Under the pieces are notes generated by a model, which saw nothing but the letters and a program-made list of their open reading frames with translations, did no database searches and had not been told where the DNA came from. A stretch of DNA of 64,000 nt from Acidimicrobiia bacterium (GTDB taxonomy: Bacteria; Actinomycetota; Acidimicrobiia; Spongiisociales; UBA11373). The position numbers and the translations under genes were made by a program. The stretch spans positions 32,511 through 96,510 of the forward strand of contig JAJCYA010000002.1 of NCBI GenBank assembly GCA_029263095.1, written 5' to 3'. Below, piece after piece: positions 48,456 to 62,534 of the stretch (positions are counted from its first letter, which is position 1; each line of letters opens with the position of its first letter).

Positions 48456-50315
48456 TTAGAGGTCGACCCGGTACCACTGCTCAATGTTCCAGGTGTCACC
48501 GGCCTGAGATGGGTTGTGCTTGTAGCCACCCAACTCGTCGGCCCAGACGGCCCCGGGGTCGAGACGTGCATAGAGCGGAATGATCACGACCTGGTCGGCC
48601 AGGATCTGCTCCGCCTCATGAATGATCTCCGTCAGTTCGTCCACGTCCACGGTCGAGTTCATGTCGTCCCGTAGCACGGCGAACCGGGCGGTGTTGTCGT
48701 CGATGACCGACGACGCGCCCTGGTTGAAGCCCTCCGGGTCAGCACCCTCCACTGCGGCAGTGCCCCAGCGGTAGAAGTTCTGGCCGTCCGGCGGTGCGCC
48801 CTCAGGATCGAAGATGTCGTGAATGCTCACGAGACCTGCGAATCCAGGCGTACCAACCCAGGCCCACTCGCCGAGATCCCAGTTACCAAAGTCGAGGGTC
48901 TCGCCGAAGAACAGCGAAGAATCCTCGAGCTGGTTCTCGTAGACAATGCCCGCATCGGCGAACATCTCGACGAACAGCTGCGACAACGTCACACGGGCGT
49001 CGTTGTTCGAAGTGGTCGAGAAGATCGTCGAAACCGGGTTGGCATCGCAATCGGTGTCGTCGCGGGCGCAAAGGTCCGCAACGAGCGCGATAGCGGTGTC
49101 AGGGTTGTAGTCGTACTGATCCCAAGCACCGAGCGAAAGCGTCGGGCTGAAGGCGTCCACGTACGAGCTCATCGGCTCGACCTGGCCCTTGAGGATCTCG
49201 TCCACAATCTTGGTCTTGTCGATGGTGTGAGCCACGGCTTGGCGGTACTCGAGGAACTCGTTGTACGAGCCCGCGTTCCGCACCAGCCGGTTGTCACCGA
49301 ACTGGAAGTTCAAGTGCTCCCAAATCGGACCCGACAGGACCTCCACCGAAGCGCCTTCACTCTCGAGGGTCTGAAGATCCTCGATCGTTTCAATGCTCGG
49401 CGGCGGATTGATGACGTCGACCTCACGTGCCTTGAACGAGTTGATCAGGGCTGCGGTCTCGGGAATGAACCGGAAGATGACGGAATCGAGGAAAGGCAGC
49501 TGCTGCCCGGTCTCGGCATCGGTCTTCCAGTAGTTCGCGTTACGCGTCAGGCGAATGAACTCGCCCTTCTGCCACTGATCGAATTCGAACGGACCACCCG
49601 ACACCCACATGGTGTCGTTCCAGTCGTTGATGAAGTCCGAACCCTCCACATCGTGCTTCGGAATCAGGAAGCCGAAGATCAGCTCAGCCTGAACGGTCGG
49701 AGCAGTGAGGGTGAATTCGAATGTCTTGGGGCCTGCCACAACAGTCGCCGGATCAATGTCTTCGTAGACGGTCCGGGTGATCGGCAGATCGGGATCCATG
49801 ATCGTGTTGTACGTGAACTCGAAGTCATCCCCAGAAATGGGGGTGCCATCGGCCCACACAGCCTCATCAAGAATCGTGTACCGAATGGTCTCGGTACCGT
49901 CTGCATTGATCGAAATTCCGCCGTTGGCCACGGTCGGGAGCTCCGTCACGACTTCCGGGATCAACTCGAGGGTGAACCCATCGATGTCCTGGACGCCGGT
50001 CCAATACCCATTGCCCACGATCGAAACGATGAAGTTGTCACCGCCCGGTGCGAAGGTGTTGAGCGTCGGAGGCTCCTGGTCACTGGCAACGATCGCCTCA
50101 CCACCGTAAGGCTTGCCCGTGGGGGCGGCCTCAGTGGTGGTAGGAGCGGCGGCTGTCGTGGTCGGCGCTGCAGTGGTAGTGGTCGTCGCTGCCGGTGCTG
50201 AAGTCGTTCCCGTCGTCTCTGCCGTGTCGTCGTCACCGCAAGCGGCCACGACGAGGACAAATGCGAGGAGAAGACCCAGCCACGTCAAGCTACGACGTTG
50301 CCACAGGTGCTTCAA
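48456..50315 (-). CDS. oppA: Family 5 ABC substrate-binding lipoprotein
   Basis: VVAAC lipobox, WADGTPISGDDF.FT, SGGPFEFDQW.KG, RQAVAHTIDK. Confidence 0.9.
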   Translation of the reverse strand: MKHLWQRRSLTWLGLLLAFVLVVAACGDDDTAETTGTTSAPAATTTTTAAPTTTAAAPTTTEAAPTGKPYGGEAIVASDQEPPTLNTFAPGGDNFIVSIVGNGYWTGVQDIDGFTLELIPEVVTELPTVANGGISINADGTETIRYTILDEAVWADGTPISGDDFEFTYNTIMDPDLPITRTVYEDIDPATVVAGPKTFEFTLTAPTVQAELIFGFLIPKHDVEGSDFINDWNDTMWVSGGPFEFDQWQKGEFIRLTRNANYWKTDAETGQQLPFLDSVIFRFIPETAALINSFKAREVDVINPPPSIETIEDLQTLESEGASVEVLSGPIWEHLNFQFGDNRLVRNAGSYNEFLEYRQAVAHTIDKTKIVDEILKGQVEPMSSYVDAFSPTLSLGAWDQYDYNPDTAIALVADLCARDDTDCDANPVSTIFSTTSNNDARVTLSQLFVEMFADAGIVYENQLEDSSLFFGETLDFGNWDLGEWAWVGTPGFAGLVSIHDIFDPEGAPPDGQNFYRWGTAAVEGADPEGFNQGASSVIDDNTARFAVLRDDMNSTVDVDELTEIIHEAEQILADQVVIIPLYARLDPGAVWADELGGYKHNPSQAGDTWNIEQWYRVDL

Positions 50316-50370
50316 GCGCTTTCCTCCTTGTCGATTAACAATGGGACTCGCGGCGAACCTCCGAAGAGGT

Positions 50371-50607
50371 TCAGTCGAGAACCCACGCCAGAGCGAGGGT
50401 TGTGATCGCGAACATCACTGCCACGGCCACAGTCAGCCTGTCAAGGTTGCGCTCGGCCACCGTGGATCCACCAAGGTTCCCCAGTGGGCCCATGCCGCCG
50501 CCGAAGGCGTCGGCCAGCCCCCCGCCCTTTCCCGCATGAAGCAGGATGAGCGAGATCAGCCCAAGTGACATGACCAAATGAACCGCGACGAGAATGCCAG
50601 CGATCAA
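50371..50607 (-). CDS. secG: Preprotein translocase subunit SecG
   Basis: LILLHAGKGGGLADAFGGG...AERNLDRLT. Confidence 0.95.
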   Translation of the reverse strand: MIAGILVAVHLVMSLGLISLILLHAGKGGGLADAFGGGMGPLGNLGGSTVAERNLDRLTVAVAVMFAITTLALAWVLD

Positions 50608-50750
50608 GACGAGTCCCTTTCATTGGCCGGCCCGCTCACAATGCAGGCCGATCGATCGGGAAGTATGGGCGACCCGAGCGCCATTGGCAAGTCACAATGC
50701 CGGCCGGAAGGGCCATGTTTATGCGTGCGTTATGTAGCGTTATACGCACG

Positions 50751-51530
50751 TTATGTTGCCGGTGTCTCGGATTCGGCGTCGGAACCCGCACTCCCCTGCG
50801 CCGCCACCGCTGCGGTCGCCGCCGAGATCGCAGCCGGATCGCCCAGATACTCAGATCCGAGAGCCTCGAGGTTGGCATCGAGCGTGTAGATGAGCGGTAC
50901 GCCGGTCGGAATGTTGAGCAGCGGGATCTCCTCGTCACTGATGCCGTCGAGATGCTTGACCAGGGCGCGCAACGAGTTGCCGTGAGCAGAAACGATCGGC
51001 GTTCTGCCGACGCGCAGCTCGGGAACGATGGCGTCGTGCCAATACGGGAGCATGCGTGCCACCACATCGGCGAGACTCTCACTGGCGGGGAGCAGGTCGC
51101 CGGGAAGCGCCGAATAGCGGGGGTCATGGCTGGGGTGGCGTTCATCGGTCACTTCGAGTGGCGGCGGGGGTACGTCGTAGGAGCGCCTCCAGACATGTAC
51201 CTGCGCCTCCCCATGCTCGGCAGCCGTCTCCGCCTTGTTGAGGCCCTGGAGAGCCCCATAGTGTCGCTCGTTGAGCCTCCAGGACCGTTGCACGGGGATC
51301 CACAACCTCGCCATGACCTCCAATGCCTCCTGGAGGGTGAGGATCGAGCGGATCTGAACGGACGTGTGGGCGGTGTCCGGTTCGACGCCCGCTTCCACCA
51401 GAGCCGATCCGGCGTCTCGAGCCTCAGCCACGCCCCTTTCAGTCAGGCCAATATCTGTCCAACCCGTGAATCGGTTGTCCAGGTTCCACTGGCTTTCGCC
51501 GTGACGAAGCAGTACGAGCGTGTGGCTCAT
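50751..51530 (-). CDS. gpmA: 2,3-BPG-dependent phosphoglycerate mutase
   Basis: [42 protein letters not shown]. Confidence 0.96.
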
Positions 51531-51635
51531 CTGCGCCACGGTAGCCAACACGTGACGAGCTCAGACTCTGGACATCGCACCGCTGAGATCGGCGACTCCC
51601 CAGCCACTGCCGAGAGCGAGCGCAGCGACCCCCAG

Positions 51636-53405
51636 CTACTCCGTCGGAACCCTCCAGACATCCACATTCCACAGTGGTCCTTGTACAGGATTCACCGCGA
51701 TTCCCGACACCGCGCTGGGCCAGTACCCGACACCGACTTCGCCGGCGAGGATCAGCGGCAGGATCACGACCTGATCGGCAAGGATCCCCTCGGCCTCTAC
51801 CAACAGCTCGCGGATCTCCCCAGGTTGGGCGACCCGATTTAGTTCATCGATGATCTGGCCGTAGCGCTCGGTGGCCTCGTCGATCACCACGCTGTCTACC
51901 GTCCCCCAACGGAAGTAGTTGTCACCGACGAACGGAAGCCCGGCGGGGTCGAACAGGCGCATGAAGTCGGCGGCTGCTCCCAGCCCTGATCCGGCGCCAA
52001 GGCGCCAGGCAGAAACATCCCAGGTGCCATCGTCGAGGGTCGTCCCGAAGAACAGAGATGCATCCTCCAACTGCAGCTCAGCGTCGAAACCGGCGTCTCG
52101 CAGCATCGTGACGAGATCGCCGCCGAGGGCAATGGCGGCAGCATCTTCGCCCGGTACCGTCAGAAGCATCGGCGGTCTGTCGGTCTCCAACACCTCAGCC
52201 ACCGACGCCAGATCCAAGTCGTATGCGGCAAATGGCTGGTCGCCGAGGCCGGGGACAAACCGGTCGAGAATCGAATCTGCCACTGCGGTGCCCCGTTCCT
52301 CCGCCAAGGAATCGCGATCGATCGCATGAGCAACGGCGCGGCGAAAGCTCGTCGAATCGTTCAGCGAGTCGACGTTGCGGTTGGCGGGACCGAACTGGAA
52401 GTTGAGGTGTTCCCACTCGCCGCTGGGAGCCACCTGGATCACGACCCCTGCGGCGGCGGCACCAGAGAACTCCTCGGTGCGAGCCTCGGCGCGGTCGAAC
52501 ACCGCCAGATCGACTTCCCCCCGCTCCAAGCCGTCCACCAGGCGTGGATCGATCGACAGGCCCGGTTCGTAGAACCGAACAACGATCCGGTCCAGAAACG
52601 GGAGTGGGGCCCCTTCAGCCTGAGTCACCTTCCAATAGCTCTCATTGCGAGACATTTCGATGAACTGGCCCGGCTGCCAATCACTCAGCGTGAAGGGCCC
52701 GCCCGATACCCAGGCCTCGTCAGTCCAGTCTCTGGCGAAATCGGATGCTTCCACTGCGTGCCGCGGCACGATGATGGAGAAGAGATCAACCGGGTCCGTC
52801 CCCGCCCTCATTCGGAACGACAGCTTCCGACCGTCCGCCCGTGGAGATCCCGGTACCACGGCCGAGTACAGATCGGCCACGTCGGCTCGGATCGGGAGTG
52901 CCGGATCGATTGCCAACCGATATGTGAATTCCAGGTCGCCTCCGGTGATCGGCATCCCGTCGGCCCACCGTGCACCCTCCACGATCTCGACCGTTACGTC
53001 GAGCGTGCCGTCTTCGTTGTCGATGATCGTCCCCGCTTCGAAGGAGGGAACCTCGACGAAGGCGTCGGGTATCCGGCTACCTGTCTCGGGGTCAACGTCG
53101 TAACCCTGGACAAACAACGCGGGAGCGAGAAGATCGAGCACTGCCGCATCCGTGCCCTCGAGGAACGGGTTGAGTGTGCGAGGAGCGCCGCCGTCGGCGA
53201 TTCCAACGACCAGAGTGCCCCCGTACGCTGAGGATCGCGCAGTGGTGGAGGTCACCGGGTCGCCCACAGATCCAATGGTTGTTGCAGCACCGGTCGTCGG
53301 CGGGGCGGGCTCGACACCTTGAGCCCCGACGCAGGCGGAAGCCCCCAACACAACGACGAGGGACATCGCCGAGAGACGAGGGCGCGGTCGTACCAAGAGC
53401 TTCAT
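51636..53405 (-). CDS. Second family 5 ABC substrate-binding protein (OppA paralog)
   Basis: Shares WADGxPI, VSGGPF, WEHLNFQFG, LEDxSLFFGxTLD, RWGT and ILADQVVI with 48456..50315. Confidence 0.88.
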   Translation of the reverse strand: MKLLVRPRPRLSAMSLVVVLGASACVGAQGVEPAPPTTGAATTIGSVGDPVTSTTARSSAYGGTLVVGIADGGAPRTLNPFLEGTDAAVLDLLAPALFVQGYDVDPETGSRIPDAFVEVPSFEAGTIIDNEDGTLDVTVEIVEGARWADGMPITGGDLEFTYRLAIDPALPIRADVADLYSAVVPGSPRADGRKLSFRMRAGTDPVDLFSIIVPRHAVEASDFARDWTDEAWVSGGPFTLSDWQPGQFIEMSRNESYWKVTQAEGAPLPFLDRIVVRFYEPGLSIDPRLVDGLERGEVDLAVFDRAEARTEEFSGAAAAGVVIQVAPSGEWEHLNFQFGPANRNVDSLNDSTSFRRAVAHAIDRDSLAEERGTAVADSILDRFVPGLGDQPFAAYDLDLASVAEVLETDRPPMLLTVPGEDAAAIALGGDLVTMLRDAGFDAELQLEDASLFFGTTLDDGTWDVSAWRLGAGSGLGAAADFMRLFDPAGLPFVGDNYFRWGTVDSVVIDEATERYGQIIDELNRVAQPGEIRELLVEAEGILADQVVILPLILAGEVGVGYWPSAVSGIAVNPVQGPLWNVDVWRVPTE

Positions 53406-57286: not shown

Positions 57287-57755
57287 CGTCGGCCTCCATA
57301 TCCAGCAATGCCTGCTTCATTGCCAGGCCACCTGCGTACCCACGGAGCGATCCGTCGGAACCGACGACCCGGTGACACGGGATCATCGGGGCGAAGCGAT
57401 TCTTGGCCATGGCTGCGCCGACCGCACGGGCCGCACCTGGTCGTCCGACGCGAGATGCGACCTGCGAATAGGTCATTGTCGTCCCGGCGGGAATCGCCGT
57501 CACGACTTGGTACACGGCTGTGTCGAATGCGGTGGCCGACGCCGGGACAATACACCCTTCTCCGGAAGGCCAACCCCCAGACCCATCGAAGTACCCGGCG
57601 AGTGCACCGGCCAACCGTTCGACTTCCGCCGGCGGCGCCGTCACGGTCCCATCCGGCTTCGGGAGGCCGGGAAGCACCAGCCGGTCGATCGCACCGGTAT
57701 CGTCCCACCCGATCCATCCCCTGCCGTGGCGAGTCTCATACGACGCCCACGACAT
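57279..57755 (-). CDS. ogt: Methylated-DNA--protein-cysteine methyltransferase
   Basis: IPAGTTMTYSQVA, ARAVGAA, IPCHRVV, GYAGGL..KQALL..E. Confidence 0.92.
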   Translation of the reverse strand: MSWASYETRHGRGWIGWDDTGAIDRLVLPGLPKPDGTVTAPPAEVERLAGALAGYFDGSGGWPSGEGCIVPASATAFDTAVYQVVTAIPAGTTMTYSQVASRVGRPGAARAVGAAMAKNRFAPMIPCHRVVGSDGSLRGYAGGLAMKQALLDMEADGG

Positions 57756-59583
57756 CCCCTCCCCCGTGGAGGACGCCGTAGAGACGTTTTGCGACCTCAT
57801 CAGGGAGAACCTCCTTCAATTCATCGGCCTCTGCCTCTCGAATCCGCTTGAGCGACCCAAAACGCCTCAGAAGAGCTTTCTTGCGAGTCGGACCGATCCC
57901 GGACACATCATCCAGTACCGAGTCAACCATACGGCGTCCTCGCAGCTTCCTGTGGTAGGCGTTGGCAAACCGATGCGCCTCGTCGCGTATCTGTTGGAGG
58001 AGGTACAGCGCCTCCTCGCCACGGGGTATCCGGACCGGCTCGGCTCGACCCGGGAGGTACACCTCTTCCATACGCTTGGCCAGGCCGGCCACCGGAATAT
58101 CGAGGTCGAGCTCATCGACCACCTTCATCGCCCGTGAAACCTGCCCCGCTCCCCCGTCGACCAGCAGCAAGGAGGGCGGATACGCAAACTTGCCTCGCTC
58201 AGCGACCGGCTGCTCACGTTCGATCAGGTAGGCCGTGAATCGGCGGTGCAGCACCTCCTCCATGGAGGCAAAGTCATCCTGGCCTTCTACGTCACGCACC
58301 TTGAATCGCCGGTAGTGGCTACGCCGAGGGAGTCCGTCTTCCATGACCACCATCGACCCCACGGTGTCTCGCCCCTGAATCGTTGCGATGTCGAACGCCT
58401 CTATCCGCAGCGGTGGCTCGGGAAGACCGAGCACCTCTTGGATGGATCGCAGCGCCTTGGCGCGCGCGTTGTGATCACTCTGTCGTCGCAGGCGGTGACG
58501 AGCGAACGCCTCCTTGGCGTTGGCGGCGGCCGTTTCCATCAGCCGACGCTTGACTCCGCGCTGGGGAACCCGAAGGGAGACACCTGCCTGACGCCGGTAT
58601 TCGAGCCAATCGGACCACAGTTCCAAATCTGAGGGAAGCCTTTGGACGAGCACCTGGGGTGGCGGCCGCTCCGATCCATAGGCCTGGCTGAGCATCCGTT
58701 CAGTGAGCTCGGCGGTTGTCACGTCCTCGACTTTGTCCACGATCGTGCTGAGACGTCCGCTGACTCTGCCGTTGCGAACGTTGAGAACCACCAGCGAGGC
58801 CTCCAGATCGTCCTCCTCGATCGCAAACAAGTCGAAGTCCTCCTTACGCGTGGAGGCGACCTCTTGCTTGGCCAGCGCCTTTTCGATCGCAGCGAGCCGA
58901 TCACGGTGCCGAGCCGCCAACTCGAACTCGAGAGCTTCGGAGGCGGCTTCCATCTCGGAGCGGATCGCCTCCCCTATCGATTCACTGTTGCCTGATAGGA
59001 ACGCCGCCAGTCCATCGACGTACTGCTGATAGACCTCGGGCGTCACTTCGCCGACGCACGGGCCGGAGCAACGTTCGATGTGGAAGAGCAGGCAAGGGCG
59101 ACCCGATGCTTCGTGTCGCCGGTACTTGCCATTCGAACAGGTCCGCACCGGGAAGGTTCGAAGCAGAAGATCGAGCGTCTGACGAATTGCGTAGGCATGG
59201 GCGTACGGCCCGAAGTACTCGGTGCCGGAACGGCGACGCCCCCGCATCACGGTCGCTCGCGGCCACTCTTCAGAGCGGGTTATGGCGAGGAAGGGATATG
59301 ACTTGTCATCCCGCAGCCGAATGTTGAACCGGGGCCGGTGCTTCTGAATGAGGCTGTACTCGAGCATGAGCGCCTCGACCTCCGTGTCGGTGACGATCCA
59401 ATCGACCGAATCGGCAGCCGCGACCATTGCTCGTGTTCGAATGGCCAGGTCGCGCGAGAAGTAGGAGCCGACCCGTTTTCGAAGCGACTTTGCCTTTCCG
59501 ACGTAGAGGATCGCCCCGTGCACATCACGGAACTGATAGGCCCCAGGACCGTCGGGAATCTCCGCAGAAGGTGGGCGCTGCAC
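57736..59583 (-). CDS. uvrC: Excinuclease ABC subunit C
   Basis: GIY-YIG (PGAYQF...LYVGKAK), NIRLRDDKSYP, RIEAFDI, LVDGG, RDEAHRFA, HhH GIGPTR. Confidence 0.97.
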   Translation of the reverse strand: MQRPPSAEIPDGPGAYQFRDVHGAILYVGKAKSLRKRVGSYFSRDLAIRTRAMVAAADSVDWIVTDTEVEALMLEYSLIQKHRPRFNIRLRDDKSYPFLAITRSEEWPRATVMRGRRRSGTEYFGPYAHAYAIRQTLDLLLRTFPVRTCSNGKYRRHEASGRPCLLFHIERCSGPCVGEVTPEVYQQYVDGLAAFLSGNSESIGEAIRSEMEAASEALEFELAARHRDRLAAIEKALAKQEVASTRKEDFDLFAIEEDDLEASLVVLNVRNGRVSGRLSTIVDKVEDVTTAELTERMLSQAYGSERPPPQVLVQRLPSDLELWSDWLEYRRQAGVSLRVPQRGVKRRLMETAAANAKEAFARHRLRRQSDHNARAKALRSIQEVLGLPEPPLRIEAFDIATIQGRDTVGSMVVMEDGLPRRSHYRRFKVRDVEGQDDFASMEEVLHRRFTAYLIEREQPVAERGKFAYPPSLLLVDGGAGQVSRAMKVVDELDLDIPVAGLAKRMEEVYLPGRAEPVRIPRGEEALYLLQQIRDEAHRFANAYHRKLRGRRMVDSVLDDVSGIGPTRKKALLRRFGSLKRIREAEADELKEVLPDEVAKRLYGVLHGGGDVVGVV

Positions 59584-59596
59584 GATCCCCAGAGAC

Positions 59597-59664
59597 TAGG
59601 TATTGGGCGCTGGGTATTGGGACGACCGGTCGCCGTCTACCCCACGCCCAACGCCCAACGCCTA
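59597..59664 (-). repeat. Inverted heptamer-repeat hairpin after the Trp-rich gene
   Basis: Minus strand TAGGCGT TGGGCGT TGGGCGT GGGG...CCCAATA CCCAGCG CCCAATA CCTA. Confidence 0.7.
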
Positions 59665-61800
59665 CATGTAGTACTCGGGTATGCAGTAGATGGCCAGCAT
59701 GTAGCCCATCCACGGCAACAGCCCCATCGGTATCAGAGCGGTCGACTTCCGGAGCCACATGCTCTGGCTGTAGCCGTGGTTGATCCCCCACCAACCGAAG
59801 AACGGCAGGAAGAAGAACGGGAACCACCCGCCCCAGAACGGAGTCAGGTTGATCGCCCACCAGAACCAGAAACCGACGTAGGCGACGAATAGACCCCACA
59901 TCCACGGCTGGAACCACGGCTGCCTACGGGGTCGGTACCACAAGTAGAAGGCGACCGGACCCAGCCAGAAGACCGGCAGCAGCAGGCCCCAGGTCGGTGA
60001 ACCGACCAAGAACATGAGCAGAGCCGCGACTCCTAGGTAGCCGCCGACCACGTACCAGTGCCATTGCAGCCACCAACTTCGGTGCCGTGCCCAGTAGTAG
60101 GCGTAGCCGGGGATGACGCCGAACCAACCGAGGAGCGGTAGCCACCACCAATTCGGCTGGAAGAACCACAGTCCCAGCAGCAGGAAGGGGATACCCACCC
60201 AGATCACCATGAACCAGGGAACCCAGCAGGACCACCATTCCTCTTCCTTGAAGTGATTGAAGATGGCGCAGAAGATCGTGAGTGCCAAGAACCCGATGAT
60301 CACGAAGCACCACCAGGGGCCCCACAGCGGGATCCACCATGCCAGGAACGGCAGGAATGTGAAGGGAACCACCCAGCACCACTTGGGACCGTGGATCACC
60401 CTCCAGCTATACCCGTGGCTGACGAACCACCAACCCAGGACGCCGAACCCCACCACCGGCAACCACCAGGCCCACCAGACCGTGAGGCTGATCACCCAGA
60501 TGAAGTTCCAGATCAGGTAGGCACCGGCGAAGCCCCACATCCACGGTTGCCACCACGGTTGACGGCTGCCCCGGAACCACAGGTAGAACCCCACCCACGG
60601 AACCCAGAACAGGGGGAACAGCAGGCCCCACTCGGGAGCACCTACCACGACCATCCCGACTCCCAGGGCCGCCAGGTATCCACCGACGACGTAGAGGTAC
60701 CACGGCTGCCACCAGGAACGTTTCTGCGCCCAGAACCATGTGTAGCCGCCGATGATCGGGAACCACGCAAGCAGCGGGACCCACCACCACGTCGGCCGCC
60801 ACCACCACATTCCTGCGAGCAGGAACGGTACCCAGGCAAAGATCACGATGAACCAAGGAATCCAGCAGGTCCACCAGTCGTAGGTCTTGAGCCAGATGTA
60901 AAGGATGGCGAGCAGCACCACCAGGAAGAGCGCGACAACGCCCCAGCACCACCAGCAGGTCTCGCTGGTGCGCTCTCGCGTGGTCGTAGAGGTGGTGGTT
61001 GTCGTTGCCGGCTCGGTGGTCTCGGTGGTCGTTGCGGCCTGCGTGGTCTCGGTCACGACGGCGGCCTGCGTGGTCTCTGTCACGACGGCGGCCTGAGTGG
61101 TCTCGGTCACGACGGCAGCCTGAGTGGTCTCGGTCACGACAGCGGCCTGCGTCGTCTCGGTCACGACGGGAGTGGCCTCTACCGGCACCCCACGCGATGT
61201 GTCGTAGACCGGCATCTCTCCGTGATACCCAAAACAGTCACCTTGAGGCTCAATGGTGATGCCGGTGAAGATGCTGGTCGTCGACTCGAAGCCGGCATCC
61301 TCGGTCCGCATGTGACCTGATGTCAGCTCGAGGTCTACAGCCGTATGACCGTTGATTGGGACACCCGAATCGACCAGTAGGGACCCGTTGGACATGATGC
61401 GCCACTCGCCGCCGACCTCGGGTCCCGCGGCGAAGGGGGCAGAATTCTGAGCGTACCCCTCCGACACGCCGTCATGGCGTTGGGTGCCGAACAAGTGGTC
61501 GAGCGTAAACACCTGTACGAACCAGGAGAAGTAGTCGGGCGGGACTCCCCCCGCCCAAGGAGCGGTCGGAAGGAGGTAGAGACATAGCGTTCCCGTTGGC
61601 GACGACATGGCCATGGCACTCTCGAACACGAAGCGTGGGTCGAGGCCAGCTTCCCCTACTGTCTGAGCAGCAAACAGTGCGGGTTGGGCACTCGGAACCG
61701 GGCCCGGATCGGCGGCGCTTGCCACTACCGCTCCACTCCCCAACACCGTAGACATAACGGTTGCGGTCAAGAACAACCGCAAACTGCGCGAACGTCGCAC
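59662..61800 (-). CDS. Extremely Trp-rich polytopic membrane protein with ectodomain and Thr stalk (function unknown)
   Basis: 712-aa ORF, GAGGGAGG RBS, signal peptide, repeat stalk, C-terminal ~435 aa with ~75 Trp (hand count) and a 213-aa internal duplication. Confidence 0.88.
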   Translation of the reverse strand: MRRSRSLRLFLTATVMSTVLGSGAVVASAADPGPVPSAQPALFAAQTVGEAGLDPRFVFESAMAMSSPTGTLCLYLLPTAPWAGGVPPDYFSWFVQVFTLDHLFGTQRHDGVSEGYAQNSAPFAAGPEVGGEWRIMSNGSLLVDSGVPINGHTAVDLELTSGHMRTEDAGFESTTSIFTGITIEPQGDCFGYHGEMPVYDTSRGVPVEATPVVTETTQAAVVTETTQAAVVTETTQAAVVTETTQAAVVTETTQAATTTETTEPATTTTTSTTTRERTSETCWWCWGVVALFLVVLLAILYIWLKTYDWWTCWIPWFIVIFAWVPFLLAGMWWWRPTWWWVPLLAWFPIIGGYTWFWAQKRSWWQPWYLYVVGGYLAALGVGMVVVGAPEWGLLFPLFWVPWVGFYLWFRGSRQPWWQPWMWGFAGAYLIWNFIWVISLTVWWAWWLPVVGFGVLGWWFVSHGYSWRVIHGPKWCWVVPFTFLPFLAWWIPLWGPWWCFVIIGFLALTIFCAIFNHFKEEEWWSCWVPWFMVIWVGIPFLLLGLWFFQPNWWWLPLLGWFGVIPGYAYYWARHRSWWLQWHWYVVGGYLGVAALLMFLVGSPTWGLLLPVFWLGPVAFYLWYRPRRQPWFQPWMWGLFVAYVGFWFWWAINLTPFWGGWFPFFFLPFFGWWGINHGYSQSMWLRKSTALIPMGLLPWMGYMLAIYCIPEYYM
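61033..61167. repeat. 27-bp tandem repeat x5 encoding VVTETTQAA
   Basis: Five near-identical units differing at synonymous positions, plus a degenerate sixth (TTTETTEPA). Confidence 0.9.
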
Positions 61801-61862
61801 TCCAGCCCTCCCTCAGAGACGAGTGCGAGTCTAGGTGCGGGGACAGTCGGCGTGCCGGGCGA

Positions 61863-62534
61863 TCAACGCCTCCACTTGGCCCCGATCAGTCGAGGAATCT
61901 GCGTTTGTGCTGCCAGCAGAGGATCTCCCGCGGGGTCGAGCGCGCGCTCGACGAGGCGTTCGAGTCGCCAACCTGCGTCGGCCGCGGCGGTCAGAAGATC
62001 ACCAAACGACCGGTGGTGAAAGACGACGGAGCTCGTTCCAGCCGGTTCGTTGGAGAATCCTCGGTCGAAGTACTCGCCCCACCGCCACAACACCTCACCG
62101 TCGCCGGGGTCTACGAACGGTCCCGACCCTGGAGCCGAGAAGACCGGATGGTTGGCCACCACGGCGAGTGTCCCGCCCGGGGCGACGACTCGGGCCGCCT
62201 CGGCAAAGAAGGGTTCCGGATCGGCAATGTGCTCCAGCACAAGCACGGCAAACGCGGCGGTCATGGCATCGGCCGCCAACGGAAGGTGTCCGACGTCCGC
62301 CACTACAGCCGGTCCTCGCACGGCCGCTACTCGCACAAGGTCGCGAGACACATCTACGCCGACTGCGCCGTACTGTTGCAGAAGCCGACCATCGCCACAC
62401 CCGAGATCAAGAGTCAAACCGCCGACGACACCGTCGAGCAGCTCGGCAAGGAGCGGATCGACATCGCGACGGTACGCCGGATCGCCTTCGACCTCTCCCT
62501 GCCACCAAGCGGCGGTCGGGCCGTCCCAGGTCAC
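61863..62534 (-). CDS. Class I SAM-dependent methyltransferase
   Basis: [33 protein letters not shown]; GTGA overlap with the uvrA stop. Confidence 0.88.

Follow-up and report, generated by a model that had tools for sequence, protein, structure and literature searches.

We describe here a gene that encodes a putative surface protein with an exceptionally tryptophan-rich membrane region, located in a 64,000-nucleotide stretch (the window) of an Acidimicrobiia bacterium genome (GenBank assembly GCA_029263095.1, contig JAJCYA010000002.1, positions 32,511 to 96,510). The open reading frame (ORF) lies at 59662..61800 on the minus strand, as do its parts and the adjoining promoter-like boxes and methyltransferase gene described below, starts with GTG, and codes for a 712-residue product, P0001. 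It begins with a signal peptide (residues ~1–29; 61714..61800) that was read by eye as an RRSRSLR motif, a hydrophobic helix (modelled at residues 5–19), and an ASA motif, followed by a beta-sandwich head (residues ~47–205; 61186..61662) whose strands are present in the structural model, whose weak fold matches offer a DOMON/CBM9-like lead, and which has invariant residues W82, H109, and G139. A Thr-rich stalk (residues 206–279; 60964..61185) is evident in the sequence, scores below 50 in the predicted local distance difference test (pLDDT), and varies in length among homologs; it contains five exact copies of VVTETTQAA (residues 212–256; 61033-61167), as the original prediction had noted. The remainder is formed by two Trp modules of eight predicted helices each, module 1 at residues 280–492 (60325..60963) and module 2 at residues 493–706 (59683..60324), both recognised from the repeat, the family profile, and modelling.

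RsgI and yeast Wsc1 similarly hold a binding head away from their membrane part by means of a stalk rich in Ser/Thr or Pro, and the head-stalk-anchor layout of P0001 is of this known kind. The correspondence is exact for single-helix paralogs of P0001, whereas the membrane part of P0001 itself is predicted to be a 16-helix Trp/Cys bundle lacking a cytoplasmic domain, and this module is without a known family or fold in the libraries searched (PDB and BFVD for fold).

A duplicated tryptophan-rich membrane module

Residues 280–712 contain 75 tryptophans in 433 positions (17.3%), confirming an earlier hand count, and only three are present in the preceding 279 residues. P0001 has the highest Trp density among 7,767 six-frame ORFs of the genome (32 per 150 residues, the runner-up having 18), and the 195 predicted polytopic ORFs have a median Trp content of 2.2% and a 95th percentile of 4.0%. 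The two copies recognised previously at a 213-residue offset align without gaps at 90 of 220 positions (41%), and the best offset in 200 shuffled sequences averaged 14.3% with a maximum of 17.6%. A finer sub-period of about 53 residues, also suggested at that time, is at chance level in the single sequence (13.4%). It does reach significance in the profile of the family, which scores 0.78 where 500 column shuffles gave at most 0.62, but hairpins 2 and 3 are the only ones that can be aligned to each other (hhalign 96.6%; 0.2–2.9% for the other five hairpin pairs).

A search with the membrane region recovered 33 homologs of 445–1057 residues, and those with names are hypothetical proteins of Acidimicrobiia or Actinobacteria. 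The family is small, since just 26 matches were obtained when its profile was run against 1.84 billion representatives; one of these, the repeat protein P0049, looks spurious, and another, P0051, looks like a frameshifted member. The module is present in 14 of 301 genomes of the order, including 11 of the 40 others of its own family, in 7 of 401 genomes of a class sample, and in 2 of 401 of a phylum sample, and none of the genomes searched outside the order has it. No family in Pfam, NCBIfam, or PHROGs matches P0001 or its homologs, no PDB sequence matches (the best E value in one further search was 0.076), and PADLOC anti-phage models gave no family in five of five proteins; Pfam scores to STEVOR, RIFIN, and mucin were rejected as stalk-driven and below cut-off. 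Foldseek found nothing at E ≤0.001 in PDB or BFVD, and VIA-align reached Z scores of at most 7.0 (whole protein) and 6.6 (module alone), with no chain at Z ≥8, a comparison that covers PDB and BFVD and in which failure to match does not prove a new fold. An ESM Atlas query with the module gave no usable match, which shows neither absence nor novelty, and a literature search, whose coverage leaves out most subscription journals, turned up no account of the family or of intramembrane cysteine pairs of the type described below. The main text of a paper on UBA5794, possibly the order in question, makes no mention of tryptophan (excerpt of PMC12008989). These results are in accord with the original prediction, in which no family was recognised.

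Modules of the family have 14–24% Trp, corresponding to 30–52 residues per 213-residue module, and sequence comparison indicates that the Trp positions are under selection, as had been proposed. Pairwise Trp retention is 0.78, compared with 0.60 ± 0.02 in 40 simulations under the LG model, which is not membrane-specific, and three close homologs retain 72–74 of the 75 tryptophans and about 83% of the other residues. Four close homologs give dN/dS values of 0.055–0.106 in the membrane region, and this check, which the original prediction had called for, thus indicates purifying selection.

AlphaFold2 modelling of the full protein with 33 sequences predicts the head, a disordered stalk, and 16 helices at residues 283–711 (pLDDT 79.8; predicted template modelling score, pTM, 0.66), and a module modelled alone has eight helices (pLDDT 82.7, pTM 0.77). 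The eight inner loops contain 13 Lys and Arg residues and the seven outer loops only one, placing the head and C-terminus outside by the positive-inside rule (excerpt of PMC5525207). The additional C-terminal soluble domains of P0030, P0034, and P0036 are consistent with a C-terminus on the outside. With reference to the predicted helices of P0001, 49 tryptophans are at helix ends, 16 in loops, and just ten in helix cores, which make up 151 of the 433 positions, and this favours interface belts over a filled lattice; belts of interfacial Trp and Tyr have been linked to anchorage (PMC5525207, same excerpt). The family profile has no conserved charged column in the helix cores.

This aromatic-rich, charge-free core is what might be expected if each lobe were a Trp-lined cavity for a hydrophobic ligand such as a porphyrin, quinone, carotenoid, or lipid, in line with the ligand scaffold that the original prediction had listed among its options. 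The best module fold match is the designed four-helix bundle apo-PS1 (Z 6.6, root mean square deviation [rmsd] 2.9, 104 residues aligned), a porphyrin-binding protein, but this Z score is background for helical bundles, module searches returned only generic bundles of this sort, and most Trp residues are at the interfaces. TspO/TSPO is the natural precedent, being a small polytopic helical membrane protein that is named for its Trp content and that binds protoporphyrin IX (excerpt of PMC10598825). However, it has five helices (excerpt of PMC8243069) compared with eight per module and 16 in all in the P0001 model, and it differs from the P0001 family in the head, the stalk, the duplication, and the co-varying cysteine pairs. 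The TspO_MBR profile matches neither P0001 (E up to 1) nor any of the 33 homologs (E up to 0.05), and solved TSPO structures are not among the module fold matches listed, an absence that does not speak against a structural match. We regard a TSPO-like ligand binder as improbable.

Cysteine pairs that co-vary between modules

Module 1 opens on the outer side with a CxxC motif (C282/C285) and has C312, R410, H462, K473, and C475 at its inner face; module 2 contains C498, C511, and C525, with C706 at its end. Two pairs of positions that join one module to the other co-vary without exception among 32 two-module proteins, some of which are near-duplicates. Positions 475 in helix 8 and 511 in helix 9 (60268..60378), both Cys in P0001, are Cys/Cys in 29 proteins, neither in three, and mixed in none; positions 298 in helix 1 and 688 in helix 16 (59737..60909), which are Ala and Thr in P0001, are Cys/Cys in 23, neither in nine, and mixed in none. 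When all 88,410 pairs are ranked by mutual information with average product correction (MI-APC), 298–688 is first and 475–511 is 41st, and on the tree there are four independent joint losses of the former and two of the latter. Cysteine combinations within a module show no coupling. This relationship was missed in the original prediction.

Naturally shortened members follow a similar pattern. In nine-helix forms, which lack helix 16, position 298 is non-Cys in 11 of 11, and C285 and C498 agree in ten of the 11, while all three clean eight-helix forms keep C298, C475, and the terminal Cys. Of 33 proteins, 29 have a CxxC motif at the beginning of the first module, and 29 have a Cys after the last one. 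At two loci the modules are 100% identical in DNA sequence over 550 nucleotides, compared with 57–70% at seven other loci, which points to recent duplication or conversion, with an assembly artefact also possible. At one of these (G261; L066:5279-13607) the identical-module Trp gene is directly after a gene for a Fur-like regulator and before one for a NiCoT-like transporter, near a P1B ATPase gene (all named by eye).

The pairs 298–688 and 475–511 are symmetry mates, from which we infer that helices 16 and 1 are in contact in the same way as helices 8 and 9. The co-variation across modules thus points to a closed, pseudo-twofold assembly of 16 helices, and the same symmetry, taken with the truncated members and the identical modules, leads to the prediction that eight-helix members are homodimers.

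Exported proteins of this organism have an even number of cysteines more often than cytoplasmic ones (0.795 of 78 versus 0.431 of 538 Cys-containing proteins, from rough gene calls), and the genome encodes DsbB; VKOR was not found in it. The outer pairs are therefore likely to be disulfides. Disulfide bonding in the host cytoplasm was considered and rejected, there being no even-Cys bias in the cytoplasmic proteins. A site in which a metal is held by residues 298, 312, and the partner's 475 was likewise discounted, since C312 is still present in proteins that lack the pair: 29 of the 32 first modules and all 11 nine-helix forms have it, whatever the state of the pairs.

Cysteine pairs within a helical membrane domain are also characteristic of DsbD-beta and CcdA, but those of the P0001 family are each lost in some lineages. 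CcdA itself gives no match (E 7.8, TM 0.13), the DsbD_TM profile matches no member of the family, and the three matches to this profile (PF02683) in the genome are all elsewhere.

The uvr slot and neighbouring genes

The gene lies between uvrA and uvrC as stated in the original prediction, except that it is separated from uvrA by a gene for a class I SAM methyltransferase (61863..62534; PF08241, E 7.8e-16) that overlaps the uvrA stop codon and is found in this slot with or without a Trp gene. Nor is it a recent insertion, since its GC content is the same as that of its flanks and the identical slot is occupied across several genera. The slot belongs to a series of housekeeping genes, uvrC-(ogt)-rapZ-yvcK-pgk-tpi, in which names other than uvrC and ogt were assigned by eye. 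Contigs from a public sequencing run, X1, are identical to 57700-60612 with zero differences, but the assembly may itself derive from this run, which therefore provides no independent support.

A role with UvrABC as a UV antenna, sensor, or shield had been suggested from this location, and 10 of 14 genomes and 14 of 20 metagenome loci do have the Trp gene in the slot between the uvrA-methyltransferase genes and uvrC; clustered membrane Trp has also been proposed as UV protection in reaction centres (excerpt of PMC12445680). However, intact Trp genes are located away from uvr in three of the 14 genomes, among them both of those that are outside its own family, and at 3 of 20 metagenome loci, an outcome that the original prediction had named as speaking against a UV role; the remainder are one genome with broken pieces only and three metagenome loci too short to place. 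In three genomes a Trp-poor paralog occupies the same slot. The gene also has what is likely its own promoter, a conserved −10-like box, TAGACT (61828..61833), 27 nucleotides before the GTG. Eleven of 12 upstream regions, including that of a relocated copy, have a TANNNT motif 25–30 nucleotides ahead of the start codon (shuffles: mean 1.3, maximum 6), these regions being related and two of them identical. A further −10-like box, TAGTCT (59593..59598), is nine nucleotides before the uvrC start, read by eye and with no control, and uvrC homologs have TACACT or TACAAT 7–8 nucleotides before theirs (also by eye); uvrC thus likely has its own leaderless promoter.

LexA control is not apparent in this region either. 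The 85–102 kb part of contig C2 of the genome (G000), which contains uvrB, uvrA, and uvrC, has no GAAC-N4-GTTC sequence and no recognisable LexA box, unlike recA and lexA, where boxes score 20–32; the best score in the 17.5-kb uvrB-uvrC stretch is 13, within the range of random stretches. PafBC can control uvr genes (excerpt of PMC8223512). Photolyase genes were found in 3 of 12 genomes of the family with the module and in 16 of 29 without it, counts in which kin are not independent and several genomes are incomplete, and no match was found in the host genome (96.8% complete). A UV function is thus very unlikely, and the uvr linkage looks like inherited gene order.

The gene can also be lost. 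Two genomes of the same genus have decayed remnants (L020:7340-7625, L010:1400-1610, L019:2600-3500) in which the uvr slot holds only the 3′ tail of the gene, with a second broken piece elsewhere in G003, and it is therefore dispensable.

The spacer between the P0001 gene and uvrC (59600-59661) has short imperfect repeats (GGGCGTT/GGGCGCT and GGGTATT on the plus strand), and low-complexity spacers resembling it are present at loci L023–L026. Elsewhere in the window (48456-53405), a phosphoglycerate mutase gene is flanked by genes for two ABC-type solute-binding lipoproteins with Thr-rich linkers (named by eye).

Exchangeable anchors and the role of the membrane module

The P0001-type head occurs in 16 of 41 genomes of its own family, and W82, H109, and G139 are invariant in 22 of 22 heads. 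It shows some resemblance to the beta-sandwiches of the DOMON-like/CBM9 clan, which includes Glucodextran_C (PF09985), CBM9, and the cytochrome domain of cellobiose dehydrogenase, with fold matches of the whole-protein model to CBM9 (1i82; Z 6.2, rmsd 3.7, 125 aligned) and the glucodextranase C-domain (1ulv; Z 5.7, rmsd 4.1, 125 aligned), but no heads are matched by hidden Markov models and immunoglobulin (Ig) domains score as well or better (6.7–7.0). Atlas language-model features of the head of homolog P0010 score 0.92 to PF09985 (range 0.90–0.92), which we take only as a lead, and the head is best described as a DOMON-like lead rather than as a member of that clan.

The head is not restricted to the Trp module. 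In genomes G007, G097, and G020 the slot contains, instead of the Trp gene, genes coding for heads with a stalk, one helix, and a Cys/His-rich cytoplasmic domain, and at locus L034 the slot has both a single-helix paralog of this type and the Trp gene. Other anchors of the head include short tails, Cys-bearing coiled coils, a lipoprotein-like form, and a type II form, and the Trp module in turn carries other heads, as in P0030. The module is therefore one of several exchangeable membrane parts. This mix-and-match arrangement of heads and anchors was also missed in the original prediction.

Several of these paralogs deserve mention in their own right. The P0058 family (L094:8557-11313, L095:9042-11858, L096, L034:2009-4777) has a domain of about 360 residues behind a single helix, predicted to be cytoplasmic, with ten conserved Cys and an HxH motif, no Pfam match, and fusions to several different heads; it has 32 homologs, eight of them with a P0001-type head, and is possibly a new metal-binding signalling domain. 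Proteins encoded at L097:2549-4366 and L098:1023-2555 join the same head and stalk to one helix and, on the side predicted to be cytoplasmic, an Ala-rich coiled coil whose six Cys have the spacing of nested pairs. A siderophore-interacting protein (PF08021, PF04954) is encoded in the uvrA-uvrC slot beside the single-helix paralog at L034:972-1742 and L095:8210-9022. A distant head paralog (E 2e-8) in the host genome (G000:C69:30169-31458) is of the type II form, its head following a Pro/acidic N-terminal region, and its gene adjoins IS21-like transposase genes (named by eye).

The receptor-like layout of the same head and stalk on the ~360-residue Cys/His-rich domain, and the substitution of Trp-module and single-helix forms for one another in one slot, raise the question of whether P0001 is a sensor or membrane enzyme, its head detecting a ligand or strain in the wall and its module giving the output. 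This could operate through an inner-face pocket (E308, T311, C312, R410, H462, K473) with an anionic lipid, a metal, or a partner protein as its ligand, and both the grouping of conserved polar residues at the inner face and the persistence of C312 noted above agree with it. However, the model shows short loops and no cytoplasmic domain, a long, flexible stalk of variable length separates the head from the module, and there is no conserved partner gene, with unlinked loci having differing neighbours. We consider this explanation unlikely, but more plausible than the others set against the one we prefer.

The invariant His in all 22 heads, accompanied by a Met in 14, together with the conserved mid-helix tryptophans, the CxxC at the first helix, and the inner Cys pairs, could alternatively be components of a cofactor-free redox device that passes holes or electrons across the membrane, as the original prediction had suggested among its options, or quenches lipid radicals. 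Chains of Trp and Tyr, and Trp acting as an antioxidant at membrane surfaces, have been described (excerpts of PMC9137623 and PMC12445680), and metal-related genes lie near a few loci, namely those in G261 and the siderophore-interacting protein genes at L034 and L095. Such a device would resemble the CYBDOM proteins, which, like P0001, have an outer DOMON-type domain on a polytopic membrane domain (excerpt of PMC10784544), but with a Trp wire in the place of their cytochrome b561. The P0001 stalk is long, however, and its helices lack the heme-ligand His set: no four conserved membrane His were found, the best His column (H462; 38 of 57 modules) is in an inner loop, the helix cores have no conserved His, and Dcytb matches the module at background level only (Z 4.8). 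Nor do the heads have the Met-then-His ligands of heme-DOMON domains, since Met is absent from eight of the 22 and, where present, follows the His, the reverse of the reference M90-H174 pair (PMC10784544, same excerpt). In addition, either inner pair can be lost, the head is also found on one-helix anchors, and the carriers are photolyase-poor and probably live in the dark. Trp radicals form at about +1 V, which is too high for routine reductive transfer. A redox device of this kind thus seems rather improbable, as does its more specific version, a new-fold conduit in which mid-bilayer Trp chains link the outer CxxC or disulfides to the inner-leaflet Cys pairs, either as a heme-free counterpart of DOMON-cytochrome b561 or as a dedicated membrane radical sink.

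The reading that we favour, tentatively, is that the membrane region of P0001 is a rigid, Cys-stapled footing, above which the Thr-rich stalk carries a DOMON-like binding head. This 17%-Trp C-terminal region would fold as a closed bundle of 16 short membrane helices with pseudo-twofold symmetry, with the ring closed by helices 16 and 1 in the same manner as helices 8 and 9 meet. Outer cysteines 282, 285, 498, and 706 would form disulfides where helices 1, 8, 9, and 16 come together, and the inner leaflet would have the inner Cys pairs as optional staples. Two dense interface belts would contain most of the tryptophans, which would also pack the short, Pro-kinked hairpins. Eight-helix members would homodimerise, the tandem form corresponding to a fused dimer, and the putative binding head would likely attach to a wall or matrix glycan.

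A number of observations weigh against such a footing. The 32 proteins that show the co-variation include near-duplicates, the 475–511 coupling is based on two losses only, and five of the 11 nine-helix forms have C475 without C511. The inner Cys pairs face the reducing cytoplasm and may therefore be redox-active or metal-binding rather than structural. Each module also has five mid-helix tryptophans, four of them well conserved (W323 0.86, W346 1.00, W399 1.00, W431 0.78), and since a single helix anchors the same head in paralogs, anchoring alone fails to explain a cost of 60–100 Trp or the conservation of Trp above expectation. The polar residues of the inner face are near-invariant (K473 0.99, R410 0.98) and with the lone conserved C312 suggest a binding or catalytic site. 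Because the footing poorly explains both the cost of the anchor and these inner-face residues (E308, T311, C312, R410, H462, and K473), its rivals remain. The DOMON assignment of the head is itself weak (Z 5.7–6.2, below the 7.0 of Ig folds), and the PF09985 profile matches none of the 22 heads and nothing in the genome at E up to 1.

Function is inferred, and the family is narrow and dispensable. Nonetheless, a natural membrane domain with 14–24% Trp, no matching family or fold in the libraries searched, and apparently ring-closing Cys pairs does not fit the common view of bacterial membrane proteins, and the Cys co-variation gives exact predictions as to which cysteines would pair and which members would dimerise. 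The eight-, nine-, and 16-helix forms, together with the fresh duplications, suggest that the passage from homodimer to pseudo-symmetric single chain may have occurred more than once in this family. The Trp modules are also a candidate system for testing how membrane proteins gain stability from dense Trp belts, and whether charge could be carried across a bilayer by chains of Trp without cofactors.

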